Part shown: one piece after another, positions 1 through 7,267 of the stretch | Numbering within the stretch: position 1 is the stretch's first letter | Layout of the letters: each line of letters opens with the position of its first letter | Assembly: GCA_029856525.1 (NCBI GenBank) | Contig: JAHQXC010000065.1 | Location: 1 to 7,267, forward strand | Length of the DNA: 7,267 bases | Origin: Candidatus Odinarchaeia archaeon | GTDB taxonomy: Archaea; Asgardarchaeota; Odinarchaeia; Odinarchaeales; Odinarchaeaceae | Reading direction: 5' to 3' | Made by a program: the position numbers and the translations under genes | Notes under the pieces: generated by a model | What the model saw: the letters and a program-made list of their open reading frames with translations, nothing else | The model's database searches: none | Told to the model about the DNA's origin: nothing

Positions 1-177
1 AGTGTTGGAATATGCGCGAGTGTTAGGTGAGTGTAGTTGAAATATTCAAAACAAATATTCCCATACCATTCTATTTAAACATTTACAGCTAATTCAAACA
101 GCTGAAAAGCAAATAGTAAAAACAGTTTTCGATAAATTAATTAATTGCACCATTAACTTATATTCTTGGTGGGCTTG

Positions 178-1080
178 ATGTCTTACCGTGAATTATATTG
201 TACAAAGAACACTGGTTTCCTTAACTCGAACACCCCGTATAGGGACGCTGAATTTATAGTAGTCGGTGTACCTTTAGATATGACTTCTTCTTATATTTCA
301 GGGACACGATTCGGACCGGATTCTATTAGAAGAGCTTCAGTGAACATTGAAACATTCGACTATGAGAAGGGAGTCGATGTCAAGAAAATTAAATTAACTG
401 ATATAGGTGACGTCGACGTCGACTACTCTAGCATAGATTTAACACTTGATAAGATAACTAAAGTGTTATCTGAGATTCTCAACGACGGTAAGAGGCCGGT
501 TATATTAGGCGGAGAGCATACGATAACACTAGGGGTGTGTAGAGCTGTTAAACCACAGGCGATGATATGCTTCGACGCTCACTTAGATTTAAGAGAAGAG
601 TATGCGGGTGCGAGAATTTCACACGCCTCCTTCATGAAAAGGATTATTGAAGAGAGATTAGTTGAAAAAATACTTTTCATAGGAACTAGAGCCGTATGCA
701 AAGAGGAGCTTAAATTTATTAAAAATAATGGTGTACACCGTTTTATAAGCTCCAAGGATGTTTATAAAAATGAATTACCTTCCCTGATTAAATTTATTGA
801 AGATGAGCTTTCCAGCTACCGGTATGTTTATATTTCAATTGACATGGATGTTTTAGAACCGGCATTCTCACCATGGGTGGGGAATCCTGAACCCGGCGGG
901 TTAACTTATAATTTTGTAAGCGATATAATTGAGAAATTAGATAAATTAAACTTTATAGGCGTTGATGTAACTGAAGTGACACCTGTATATAACATTGATA
1001 TAACCTCTATATATGCGGCTAAGCTTCTATTTAAAGCAATTATCTCGATAAACGAATCTAAAACACGTATACGAAAATAA
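178..1080 (+). CDS. speB: Agmatinase / ureohydrolase (arginase family), about 300 aa
   Basis: Arginase-family motifs GVPLD..SSY..GTRFGP..IR, GGEHTIT, FDAHLDLR, SHAS and SIDMDVLEPAFSPWVGNPEPGGL. The ORF track opens at TTG 166, but GGTGG (168-172) is a well-spaced RBS for ATG 178, so 178 is preferred. It lies next to arginine decarboxylase. Confidence 0.92.
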   Translation: MSYRELYCTKNTGFLNSNTPYRDAEFIVVGVPLDMTSSYISGTRFGPDSIRRASVNIETFDYEKGVDVKKIKLTDIGDVDVDYSSIDLTLDKITKVLSEILNDGKRPVILGGEHTITLGVCRAVKPQAMICFDAHLDLREEYAGARISHASFMKRIIEERLVEKILFIGTRAVCKEELKFIKNNGVHRFISSKDVYKNELPSLIKFIEDELSSYRYVYISIDMDVLEPAFSPWVGNPEPGGLTYNFVSDIIEKLDKLNFIGVDVTEVTPVYNIDITSIYAAKLLFKAIISINESKTRIRK

Positions 1081-1528
1081 CAGCTACGCAGCCGTATTTA
1101 GCTGATTGAACTTCTAGAGAAGCTGTCTCGAATTTAAAACACTCCACAGTCATCCCCCGGCTAGCCGCCATTTCCTGTAAGCGTTCCCTGAGACTCTTCT
1201 CCAACACTTGGTTGTCTATAAAATTCTGCTGTGCTGTTACCACTAATCCCATTTTTTCACGGCCTCTGCTGGCTAAACCCCATATAAGTCCAGCTGATAT
1301 TCGATCCCCTCTAATCCCTGTGTTCTTGCTAATAACTGTGTAAACTATTTCTCCTGTTTCAAATCGTTTAGGGGGGGTTTCAACCGCTTCACCTGATATT
1401 ATAGAGGAGACAGGTACTATATTCACATTATCTAAGCCTGCTTGAATTAAAACTTTATCAAACGCGTTCACAGGGGATACATCACTTAACCCTGCACCTT
1501 TAACTATGAAGAAATTTTTAGCGTTCAT
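1058..1528 (-). CDS. pdaD: Pyruvoyl-dependent arginine decarboxylase proenzyme (PvlArgDC), 156 aa
   Basis: Signature NAFD..L..AG..NVNIVPVSSI with the Ser41-Ser42 self-cleavage site (nt 1408-1403), the guanidinium-binding Asp (AFD) and the processing Asn (NVN). It also has ISAG and a C-terminal YGCV. The catalytic Glu position is Thr (see findings). Confidence 0.88.
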   Translation of the reverse strand: MNAKNFFIVKGAGLSDVSPVNAFDKVLIQAGLDNVNIVPVSSIISGEAVETPPKRFETGEIVYTVISKNTGIRGDRISAGLIWGLASRGREKMGLVVTAQQNFIDNQVLEKSLRERLQEMAASRGMTVECFKFETASLEVQSAKYGCVAVIFVYVF

Positions 1529-2001: not shown

Positions 2002-2019
2002 AAAGAGGAGTTGAATGAT

Positions 2020-2319
2020 TTGGAGTTCTGCCCTAAGTGTGAAGCGCTGTTATTCCCTAAAAAAGAAGGGGATAAGGTAATATTATTCTGTAAAAAATGC
2101 GGCTTCGAAACTGAAGCTAAAGAAGGTGTAGACTATAAGTTAGTGGTTAACATACCGCACACTGAGAAAGATAAAATCGATGTTATTAAATTATCTGTTA
2201 AGAAAAGAGTTTCAGAAGAAGAGAGGGAGGCTTTCGAAGATTATTATCGCGGGTTAGAGGAAGCTGGTGAAGAATTTGAAGAAGAAGGAGAGGAGAGCGA
2301 GGGAGAAGATTATGAATGA
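2020..2319 (+). CDS. TFS/RpoM (A12.2/Rpb9/C11 family) paralogue with the N-terminal zinc ribbon and linker only, followed by an acidic tail; about 99 aa
   Basis: EFCPKC..LLFP and FCKKCGFE zinc ribbon plus the TFS-like linker YKL...IPH..KDKI.VI. There is no second CxxC pair and no QTRSADEP hairpin. The ORF track starts at TTG 2011, but RBS GAGGAG abuts that codon, whereas TTG 2020 has 9-nt spacing and gives the canonical MEFCPKC start. Confidence 0.82.
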   Translation: MEFCPKCEALLFPKKEGDKVILFCKKCGFETEAKEGVDYKLVVNIPHTEKDKIDVIKLSVKKRVSEEEREAFEDYYRGLEEAGEEFEEEGEESEGEDYE

Positions 2320-2342
2320 AAAATTTAAGGCGGGGAGCCTAT

Positions 2343-2585
2343 ATGGCTGAGAGAATAAAGGCTTTTATAAGCGTTACCACAGAGCACATGGAGCCTGAGG
2401 AAATCCGCGATACACTTGTTAAAGATTGTAAACCCGAGGAAATCTATTTTGTAACAGGCGAATACGATTATATTTTAAAGATTAGTGTAGATGATATGAA
2501 TGAGTTGAAAGAGATGGTTTCAAAGCTTAGAAAGCATTCATGGATTAAAAAAACTAACACTTCGATAATTCTTAAACAACTCTAG
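2343..2585 (+). CDS. Stand-alone Lrp/AsnC ligand-binding (RAM) domain protein without HTH, about 80 aa
   Basis: KAFISV, EIYFVTGEYDYILKI and KKTNTSIIL match the RAM domain (the VTGEYD motif). ATG 2343 has RBS GGGGAG at 2332-2337. The alternative ATG 2316 overlaps the upstream TGA (ATGA). Neither start leaves room for an HTH. Confidence 0.85.
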   Translation: MAERIKAFISVTTEHMEPEEIRDTLVKDCKPEEIYFVTGEYDYILKISVDDMNELKEMVSKLRKHSWIKKTNTSIILKQL

Positions 2586-5302: not shown

Positions 5303-7267
5303 TTAGATAAGGTCTTTATCCCTGATTTCTTTAGAAGAAGCCATCCACATAGGTCCGAGAACTCTGTGAACTAGTTGAACATAGGCGGGTTGATGTGATA
5401 CTAGTGCGACTATTTGTTGAGGCTGACCCGTGTTAGGTGCGAGTAAAACCTCTTCATTGTCTCTGGCACACCCGAAAAAGTCTCTTTCAGGTCTATCCCA
5501 TATTCTAATGTTCCCCTTCGATAATAGTTTTTTAATCGCTTCCATATCTGATTCAAGATTTAAACCGGTAACTAAATGTATTCTAATTCTAGGTTTTGTT
5601 TGAAGTAATACGTTGACTACAGTTTCATCTAATTCCGGCAGGACTATTGTAACCGTGGATTTTGTCCGATAAATCATATCGCATATATGCGTTAGCACAG
5701 CTACTCTAGAGATGAGATGCCATGTACCCTCCGCTTTTTCAAGAGTTGTATGGGAGGCTTCCTCCCATGCTGATTTTAATACAGCGGTGGATTGTAGAAC
5801 GCTGCGTGCAATATCGTTAAGAGGTTTCTCACATTTAGATTGAATACCGTCGATTAAATTTTCAAGGAGAGTGGAAGAGGAGTCAAGTTGATCTATACTC
5901 TGCTTCTCAACACTTTTAATATGGTTTACAGTTGATTCGCTTAATTTACTAGAATAATACGCGTATTTCTCTTTAAGATCGGTTTTAAGTTTTCCGAATA
6001 GGTTTTCTAATTCAACCTTTATATTAGAAGGTGTTACTGTAAAACTCTCACCAAGCTTGTTTTTAACTTCTCCAACACTGTTTTTAATGTTTAATATACC
6101 GGTTTCGAAAACATTTAAAGTCTCATGGCATGTGTGATCTGTTGCTTTCAAGTTTTCATCATGGCTGGCAGCTATCTTAGAATCGGTTTCAGCTGATATA
6201 TTTTCTATTAGGTCTACTGCGTCAGCCTCTATTTTTTCAATTATACTAATAGACTCTTTTAAACTTCTATCAAGCTCTGAGACTAACCGGTCTTTATTAT
6301 TTGAGATCAGTGTACGCGTATTTTCAGCTTTCAACTCGATTTCTTCGTTTAATTTTCGTGAACTCGTAGATAAATCAGCTTCTATTTTATCTAAGTTTTC
6401 GCTGATACCGGTTATATGCGACTCTATTTCACCCTCCAGAGTGGTTGACTGATTCCCTAGTAACGTTGAGACTGAATTCTTTATATTTGAAATATTCGAG
6501 CTGATTAATCTAGTTTTTTCACTGGTTTTTGATTCGAGTTCTCCTGTTAACTTAGATGAATCGGATTCAATTTTTCTAGTTACCGAGCTTATCTTCTCAT
6601 TTAATTGTTTATGTAAACCGTTGAGAAGAGTCTCCGCAGTATTATTCTTATCTTCAACAAGGCTCTCTATATTTGTTGAAGCCTCTTTTAAGCTTGTTTT
6701 AGCTTTATCTATTATTTTATCAAGTTTTACAGTACCGGATTCTTTAAACTCGCTTAAAGCCCGGCTGCTTTCACTCTGATATGATTGAAGGCTTTCCTCA
6801 ACATTCTCTTTAAATGAAATTATCCTCGAATTTACGGTATCTGCTACTGATTCAACCATTTTTAGAATTCGATTCTTAGAATTATTCACGTACTCGATTA
6901 AACTGTTATGAGTTGAAGCTAATAATTCTTTTAACTCTGATTTTAAGATTTGAAACTGCTCTATTATGTTTTTAAAAATTGATTCAATCTTTTCATCGGA
7001 GTCTTTTAAAGCTGCTTGTTGGAGGCTTATTAGATTCGCCAGCTCATCTTCAAGAGCGGCTCTGTTTTCAGGTATAGTTTTCTGTAGAATGCTTTGAATA
7101 TGTTCAGCTTCCTCTTTAACTCTCGCTTGGATGCCGCTAGCTGTCTCACCTAGCTTTCTGATGAGGGCTTCATATATCTGGCTGATGATTGCTGTTAACT
7201 CTGTTTGCTCAGTTATCAAATCCGTTTCTATACTAGCTATTTTATCATTAACCTCTTTTTTTAATCC
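5303..7267 (-). CDS. 5'-partial (at least 654 aa) long hendecad coiled-coil protein with a C-terminal TrmB-like / PLD-fold domain
   Basis: The frame stays open past TTG 7219 to the window edge (GLKKEVNDKIASIETD, no stop), so the real start is outside the window. About 500 helical residues contain only 3 Pro. The C-terminal ~140 aa (GTWHLISR..ICDMIYRTKSTVTIVLP, ARDNEEVLLAP, ALVSHQPAYV..W) resemble the TrmB effector domain by recalled similarity, not by a search. Confidence 0.8.
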   Translation of the reverse strand, partial: GLKKEVNDKIASIETDLITEQTELTAIISQIYEALIRKLGETASGIQARVKEEAEHIQSILQKTIPENRAALEDELANLISLQQAALKDSDEKIESIFKNIIEQFQILKSELKELLASTHNSLIEYVNNSKNRILKMVESVADTVNSRIISFKENVEESLQSYQSESSRALSEFKESGTVKLDKIIDKAKTSLKEASTNIESLVEDKNNTAETLLNGLHKQLNEKISSVTRKIESDSSKLTGELESKTSEKTRLISSNISNIKNSVSTLLGNQSTTLEGEIESHITGISENLDKIEADLSTSSRKLNEEIELKAENTRTLISNNKDRLVSELDRSLKESISIIEKIEADAVDLIENISAETDSKIAASHDENLKATDHTCHETLNVFETGILNIKNSVGEVKNKLGESFTVTPSNIKVELENLFGKLKTDLKEKYAYYSSKLSESTVNHIKSVEKQSIDQLDSSSTLLENLIDGIQSKCEKPLNDIARSVLQSTAVLKSAWEEASHTTLEKAEGTWHLISRVAVLTHICDMIYRTKSTVTIVLPELDETVVNVLLQTKPRIRIHLVTGLNLESDMEAIKKLLSKGNIRIWDRPERDFFGCARDNEEVLLAPNTGQPQQIVALVSHQPAYVQLVHRVLGPMWMASSKEIRDKDLI
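5777..7264 (-). repeat. Protein-level 11-residue (hendecad) tandem repeat of about 46 units, with traces of a 66-residue super-repeat
   Basis: Taking every 11th residue from -14 to 481 (ORF-track numbering), 38 of 46 are L/I/V/F with no register break. The +4 and +7 positions are also enriched in hydrophobic residues. No DNA-level tandem repeat is visible. Confidence 0.85.

Follow-up and report, generated by a model that had tools for sequence, protein, structure and literature searches.

A TrmB-type protein of Asgard archaea with a predicted hendecad rod of about 117 nm

The 7,267-nucleotide stretch of DNA analyzed here (the window) carries, on its minus strand, the coding sequence for the last 654 residues of an Odinarchaeial (Asgard) protein that is ~1028 residues long, and the sequence comparisons below indicate that the gene is whole in the organism. 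We are highly confident that this protein belongs to the TrmB family and that it is built from a winged helix, an expanded amphipathic helix and a phospholipase D (PLD)-like domain. Judged by sequence, the dimerization helix is enlarged about 25-fold, from ~30 residues in TrmB and TrmBL2 to ~790 residues. Our favored reading is that this helix would pair in antiparallel fashion with that of a second chain to form a fixed-length spacer of ~117 nm, and we put the probability of that whole chain of steps at roughly 0.45; an extended intermolecular rod in either orientation is, from the same sequence features, a likely outcome.

Results

Gene reconstruction

The features to which the text refers are these:

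Window 5303..7267, minus strand: last 654 codons and stop codon of a ~1028-codon gene; the frame stays open up to the window edge, where the contig end cuts off its 5' end.
Window 5753..7267, minus strand: hendecad rod, open-ORF residues 1–505 (~375–879 of the whole protein), comprising 46 of ~72 hendecads (Fourier analysis, constant phase).
Window 5306..5752, minus strand: junction and C-terminal alpha/beta domain of TrmBL2/TrmB type (PLD-like fold) with a conserved RDxEE motif (AF2 model, Foldseek).
Window 7217..7219, minus strand: internal Leu codon TTG, not a start (frame open upstream; ortholog continuous here).
Contig C121 4981–5931, same strand as the rod gene: cysteine-rich partner gene of 316 codons, 100 nt upstream of the rod gene.

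The window is the whole of a contig (C117) in a 1.32-Mb genome of 127 contigs. When open frames were scanned genome-wide for 11/3 periodicity, one other strong case appeared, a frame running off the end of contig C121. This second piece (P0002) has an ATG start, a TrmB winged helix (PF01978, residues 15–79, 49.1 bits against a gathering cut-off of 25.6) and then 280 residues of the same 11-residue repeat. Reference genomes searched for the C-terminal domain yielded a 1028-residue ortholog (P0157) from Candidatus Odinarchaeota J65_bin.29, residues 1–367 of which align with the C121 half at 60% identity and residues 376–1028 with the window ORF (P0001, 654 residues) at 66%, in both cases without a gap; there is no indel between the two Odinarchaeial orthologs over 1020 aligned residues. 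Because the alignment to both pieces is gapless, only ~6 residues are missing between them (ortholog residues 369–374 are uncovered), and a six-residue gap between the contig halves leaves the hydrophobic stripe in phase.

The preliminary description of the window had called a start at the TTG at 7219. That codon encodes an internal Leu and is no start codon, since the open frame reaches the window edge and is taken up again on another contig; the ortholog runs continuously through the position. The same description had expected the rod to extend past the window, which proved right, with a full rod of ~790 residues.

Could the two contig-end frames nevertheless be different genes, or a broken gene, with the window frame encoding a headless rod protein? 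In favor of this, we found no overlap between the ends of C117 and C121. Against it, both pieces are colinear and gapless with one 1028-residue ortholog, and neighbors match on both sides: gene order is identical in the two Odinarchaeial genomes (histidine biosynthesis, a gene of 316 or 329 amino acids, the rod gene, FAD oxidase, Fe-S/CCG). A public 21,044-nt contig, from a run that is probably the source sample, matches window positions 6000–7267 without differences and then continues for 13.9 kb past the window end, and full-length homologs with the identical architecture exist. We regard separate or broken genes as very improbable.

Periodicity and rod anatomy

The preliminary description had read the window frame as a hendecad rather than a heptad repeat, and Fourier analysis bears this out. 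Kyte-Doolittle power over open-ORF residues 1–505 peaks at 630 at a period of 3.67 residues and is only 5 at 3.5, compared with a mean of 10 and a highest value at any period of 144 in shuffled controls (n = 2000). This single strong peak is phase-coherent across the ~505 residues, and the peak falls at 3.62–3.74 in every 66-residue window slid along the first ~500 residues, in keeping with the earlier claim of a stripe without stutter; the 11/3 signal is gone in the final 150 residues of the open ORF. Numbered from the TTG at 7219 (residue 1, minus strand), the residues spaced exactly 11 apart (−14, −3, 8, 19 ... 481) are Leu, Ile, Val or Phe in 38 of 46 cases, a count that we reproduced. Chance would give 12.4 of the 46 at the rod's L/I/V/F frequency of 0.269 (binomial P = 5e-15), and the counts across the eleven registers are 6, 38, 5, 3, 12, 29, 6, 1, 19, 16 and 1. 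Our recount of prolines in the window rod likewise agrees (three, at 50, 397 and 466 in the same numbering), as does the length arithmetic of ~75 nm for the window's share of the rod, which contains 14 Gly per 505 residues.

In the J65_bin.29 ortholog, the 11/3 signal drifts in phase by no more than about one residue step between residues ~67 and ~870, which amounts to ~72 hendecads with neither stutter nor skip. The amphipathic helix, whose role in dimerization is putative, follows directly on the winged helix, with its seam starting at ~67–90 and ending at ~870; only two prolines (440 and 856) and nine glycines fall within its 791 residues, which at 0.148–0.15 nm per residue would measure 117–119 nm if extended. 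At core positions a, d, e and h, 73, 42, 54 and 74% of residues are hydrophobic, mainly Leu and Ile, whereas every other position is at most 24% hydrophobic and the seven non-core positions are mostly Ser, Thr, Asn, Glu and Lys. An 11/3 period in constant register and an a/d/e/h core are the sequence marks of a hendecad coiled coil, and both are present.

Between the two orthologs, the end domains are more conserved than the rod (78% and 83% identity versus 59%), and core positions are more conserved than non-core positions (69% versus 53%). The latter difference indicates, at the level of sequence, that the hydrophobic seam is under selection.

End domains and the DNA-recognition surface

The last 150 residues yield a confident AF2 model (pLDDT 93.7) of a single alpha/beta domain. 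Its best solved Foldseek matches are TrmBL2 (5bpd/5bpi/5box, E 3e-8), followed by TrmB (2f5t/3qph; 2f5t at 2.5e-7) and then PLD-fold proteins, with TM scores of 0.65–0.69 to the TrmBL2 and TrmB structures; in the solved TrmB, the counterpart of this domain is the first effector subdomain. By sequence, the domain has no match in Pfam or among PDB sequences, and it is recognized by fold alone. Across 100 homologs, E112 is invariant and T21, W22, R40, P50, R108, D109 and E111 are nearly so. The protein ends ~140 residues beyond the rod, directly after this PLD-like domain.

At the other end, the best solved sequence match of the N-terminal domain is again TrmBL2 (E 1.3e-3). Winged helix, dimerization helix and C-terminal domain, in that order, are common to TrmB and TrmBL2 (PMC4877046). 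Because the C-terminal domain of these proteins has the fold predicted for the last 150 residues, we describe the rod protein as TrmBL2-type with a ~790-residue dimerization helix. The preliminary description missed this membership because the winged-helix head sits on another contig.

Narrower identities were rejected. The protein is a distant relative of TrmBL2 and not its ortholog, scoring 22.8 bits with NCBIfam NF041141 against an equivalog cut-off of 530. It is not a TrmB sensu stricto or TrmBL1 sugar sensor either, since it is without the second, sugar-binding subdomain and scores 21.3 against 600 with NF040851. An SMC/Rad50-like protein was also considered: the Pfam and NCBIfam matches of either half include no Walker A/B head and no hinge or zinc hook family, and both ends are TrmB-type domains, so the earlier remark that no SMC-type ATPase or hinge is visible holds for the whole protein. 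The accompanying prediction that such proteins would be mislabeled SMC-like was not borne out, as the public (NCBI) annotation of relatives is 'helix-turn-helix domain-containing protein'.

The winged helix appears to have lost the residues by which its relatives read DNA. Tyr50 and Asp51 are the residues of TrmB and TrmBL2 in contact with DNA (PMC4158304), and their equivalents in the rod protein are Gln52 and Lys53. The recognition-helix Tyr is missing from all 83 long family members; 78% of the winged helices in these long members carry zero or negative net charge (mean domain net charge −1.2), and their recognition helix is acidic on average. The genome's two ordinary TrmB-like proteins retain Val-Tyr-Asp/Arg. 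Because the recognition-helix Tyr is lost, DNA binding by the rod protein looks doubtful from its sequence. Taken with the acidic or neutral heads, the lost signature suggests that the winged helix may have been turned into a protein-docking module, which would make a DNA tether only one possibility.

Relatives across Asgard archaea

A word-index search for longer homologs returned none, and an exhaustive, profile-free search afterwards yielded many: at least 215 cluster representatives carry the C-terminal domain, always at the extreme C-terminus, in proteins of 340 to 1907 amino acids. Their rods run from ~100 to 1700 residues with clade-specific lengths. Nearly all have periodicity maxima of 3.66–3.68 over the whole middle part, and some hold one register for more than 1000 residues. 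The TrmB head (PF01978) is present in 75 of the 125 members of at least 300 residues, and many head-less members among the other 50 are probably gene fragments. Among 25 loci in species-representative genomes, all but one belong to Asgard lineages or unnamed archaea (Odin-, Hod-, Hermod-, Hel-, Prometheo-/Loki- and Atabeyarchaeia). The exception lies on a contig labeled as part of a bacterial bin, with the same neighbors as at a Helarchaeota locus, and is probably misbinned. The Odinarchaeial genome under study also encodes one 468-residue paralog (on C21), whose 125-residue N-terminal extension matches no Pfam family; its two ordinary TrmB-like proteins have 250–275 residues.

The distance from the winged-helix anchor to the C-domain anchor is clade-specific, ranging from 102 to 1707 residues. 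Identical spacings recur, at 1098 residues in six representatives that are 14–45% identical, at 770 in four and at 730 in four, and spacing is equal in 10 of 31 independent nearest-neighbor pairs. For the clade with a spacing of 1098, the claim is limited to identical spacing; we do not call its rods gapless because MAFFT inserted many gaps into their alignment. Spacing modulo 11 shows no preferred class, and when nearest relatives differ in length the helical face is not kept (mean cosine −0.04, P 0.6); therefore, the two ends have no fixed rotational relation.

The upstream cysteine-rich gene

The partner gene directly upstream of the rod gene is arranged in the same way at the Odinarchaeota ortholog locus and in a subfamily of 836-residue rod proteins. 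Homologs of the partner occur in 277 of the 400 Asgard genomes searched, and of 20 loci sampled in different genomes, 13 have a TrmB-rod gene immediately downstream in the same orientation. Five of its cysteines (C49, C52, C59, C65 and C89) are invariant or nearly so. The protein matches no Pfam or NCBIfam family. Its structure model (pLDDT 86.9) has no clear solved fold by Foldseek and no Atlas match, and its AFDB relatives are all uncharacterized. The C-terminal subdomain resembles type III secretion chaperone/YbjN-like folds with Z of 7–8, a value within the range of chance arrangements. The partner is probably a cofactor or chaperone.

Discussion

In the reading that we favor, the rod helix would stay straight and pair via its seam with its counterpart in a second chain, with four chains possible if the C-domains tetramerize as they do in TrmBL2. 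This would yield a coiled-coil rod of ~117 nm with almost no twist, acting as a fixed-length spacer between its two end domains. Pairing would be antiparallel, as reported for the TrmB dimerization helix, in which the contacts given in a review (Phe81/Ile91' and Phe84/Leu88') describe an antiparallel pair (PMC4158304). A winged helix and a C-domain would then sit side by side at each rod end, and the dimer would link two targets separated by ~117 nm. These could be DNA, by descent, or proteins, which we consider because the DNA-recognition signature is lost.

We infer an intermolecular, nearly untwisted rod from the narrow Leu/Ile seam at a/d/e/h, its unbroken register, the lack of indels between orthologs and descent from a dimerization helix, a trait common to TrmB and TrmBL2 (PMC4877046). 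By sequence, these same features are the hallmark of coiled coils rather than of amphipathic helices that seek out surfaces or of charged single helices. For orientation, we correlated the deviations in core hydrophobicity with their own mirror image at 77–87 in-phase centers. The best mirror center lies 17 residues off the rod center (z 3.5–3.8 in the J65_bin.29 ortholog and 2.7 in the protein of this genome), and among 38 family members, which are related sequences, the best center falls within 45 residues of the rod center in 14 versus 8 expected. Because the family enrichment is weak and the sequences are related, we take this as a weak hint of two-fold symmetry near the rod center.

The nearest rival is a parallel, in-register coiled coil with the winged helices paired at one end on DNA or another target and the C-domains ~117 nm away, forming an anchored stalk or tether. 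A homodimeric seam of constant register would suit it equally well, and in TrmBL2 the helix sets two winged helices on adjacent major grooves, an arrangement that a long helix keeps only if it is parallel (PMC4877046). However, the reported TrmB contacts are antiparallel, the mirror signal, weak as it is, lies close to the rod center, and the signature for pair-wise DNA reading is lost anyway, so we consider parallel pairing rather unlikely. The missing modulo-11 constraint is neutral for parallel pairing. The mirror signal would be produced just as well by a central hairpin, and the chain might fold back on itself, once or several times, into a shorter two- or multi-helix bundle that brings head and tail together as in TrmBL2. 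Such a fold sits poorly with a seam phase that is unbroken through the center, where the power never collapses, and with the absence of a central Pro/Gly cluster or of any indel along the aligned orthologs. We judge folding back to be improbable.

The preliminary description had also offered an amphipathic helix of the apolipoprotein or perilipin type, and LEA-like proteins belong to the same idea of an 11-mer helix lying on a membrane or lipid surface in place of a coiled coil. An 11-residue periodicity is common to those proteins, and Pfam Apolipoprotein (PF01442) ranks first for both halves, with 59.4 and 44.6 bits. Both scores are nevertheless below the gathering cut-off of 90, and we rejected a relationship to apolipoprotein A1/A4/E. 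The hydrophobic face is narrow and dominated by Leu and Ile, with few aromatics and no Pro every 22 residues; both end domains come from a cytoplasmic DNA-binding family; and each clade keeps a fixed length, for which a surface coat has no need. A coiled coil fits these features better, and we hold a lipid-bound helix to be more improbable still than a folded-back chain.

The rods and the partner gene invite a broader and more speculative proposal. Rods derived from TrmBL2, each clade with its own fixed length between ~15 and 250 nm, could make up an Asgard-wide two-gene module with the partner. The module would build an intracellular scaffold or ruler, for example a tether keeping a set distance between the nucleoid, or some other structure, and a second structure in the cell, with the head repurposed for docking. 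We hold this proposal to be rather unlikely. If it is true, it would add a new kind of long-range architectural element to the closest archaeal relatives of eukaryotes. Eukaryotic cells are organized by long, rigid coiled-coil spacers such as tethers, lamins and components of the spindle and centrosome, and we know of few such spacers from archaea. Here, a small nucleoid-associated regulator appears to have given rise to predicted rods of defined length that would span a large part of a small cell, and this change from regulator to rod is retained throughout Asgard archaea and linked to a conserved partner gene. To our knowledge, these proteins are also by far the longest uninterrupted natural hendecad repeats, with more than 70 and up to ~155 repeats, and they should therefore be a useful model for non-heptad coiled coils. 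We found no description of giant TrmB-like rods in the literature searched; in a 2026 preprint on Asgard chromatin, TrmBL appears merely as a family color in a figure legend.

Comparison with known systems

Among characterized proteins, the closest in plan is TrmBL2, a chromatin protein of Thermococcales (TK0471/PF0496; PDB 5bpd, 5bpi, 5box and 5bqt). It has the same domain order and likewise no sugar-binding subdomain. It is, however, a protein of 264 residues with a helix of ~30, compared with 1028 and ~790 here; its DNA-contacting Tyr50 and Asp51 are lost in the rod protein, and the C-terminal domains are alike by fold only. TrmB and TrmBL1 (3qph and 2f5t) share the PF01978 head, the coiled-coil helix and the first effector subdomain, but they also have the second, sugar-binding subdomain that is absent here, and the rod helix is ~25 times longer than theirs.

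Outside this family, apolipoproteins A1/A4/E share the 11-residue amphipathic period and supply the best Pfam match of the rod, yet the rod differs from them in its sub-threshold score, its lack of Pro-punctuated 22-mers, its narrow seam and its cytoplasmic TrmB context. The tetrabrachion stalk and the peripheral stalks of A/V-type ATPases are hendecad coiled coils, and their rods measure some tens of nanometers at most. With these stalks the rod protein has in common the 11/3 period and the a/d/e/h core, which imply a nearly straight or slightly right-handed supercoil. It has no sequence relation to them, and its predicted rod is far longer, at ~117 nm here and up to ~250 nm in its relatives.

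Short family members and a paralogue

In the tree of end domains, members whose winged-helix and C-terminal anchors lie 102-145 residues apart are scattered between clades of long-rod proteins, as exemplified by P0056 (spacing 144), which is placed beside P0062 (spacing 1514). Such interspersed short members reflect either secondary loss of the rod or miscalled genes. The genome that holds the window also encodes a paralogue of the rod protein on a separate contig, C21:

C21 9437-10840, minus strand: 468-residue protein that shares the TrmB head and C-terminal domain of the rod protein

It has just a short linker helix, which shows no 11/3 peak, and carries an additional N-terminal region of ~125 residues, for which we found no Pfam family.

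The sole family locus from a bacterial bin, L024 (DATKTP010000090.1, labelled Candidatus Deferrimicrobium sp.), has gene neighbors that match those of the Helarchaeota locus L026, and its contig is therefore probably misbinned.

Gene neighborhoods

Other genes in the window include:

166-1080, plus strand: arginase-family (agmatinase-like) protein
1058-1528, minus strand: pyruvoyl-dependent arginine decarboxylase
2011-2319, plus strand: RPB9/TFS-type zinc-ribbon protein whose tail is highly acidic
2316-2585, plus strand: small protein consisting of an Lrp/AsnC ligand-binding domain only

The first two are convergent, overlap by 23 bases and together cover both steps from arginine to putrescine. 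The latter two overlap by 4 bases, and the same pair also adjoins the rod gene in loci of the 836-aa subfamily (L005-L007).

Directly 5' of the rod gene, on the contig that carries its 5' half (C121, locus L003), lies a conserved cysteine-rich gene of ~300 codons, with an orthologue in a second locus:

C121 4981-5931, plus strand: cysteine-rich partner gene
L004 4297-5286: its orthologue

Five of its cysteines (C49, C52, C59, C65 and C89) are invariant or nearly so, and the protein matched no known family in Pfam or NCBIfam. A search of 400 Asgard genomes found homologues in 277. A TrmB-rod gene comes next after the partner gene in 13 of the 20 loci sampled. In loci of the 1792-1807-aa subfamily (L008, L010, L013, L015, L016 and L018-L022), however, the partner is replaced upstream by two conserved genes of ~552 and ~387 codons, which lie on the same strand as the rod gene.
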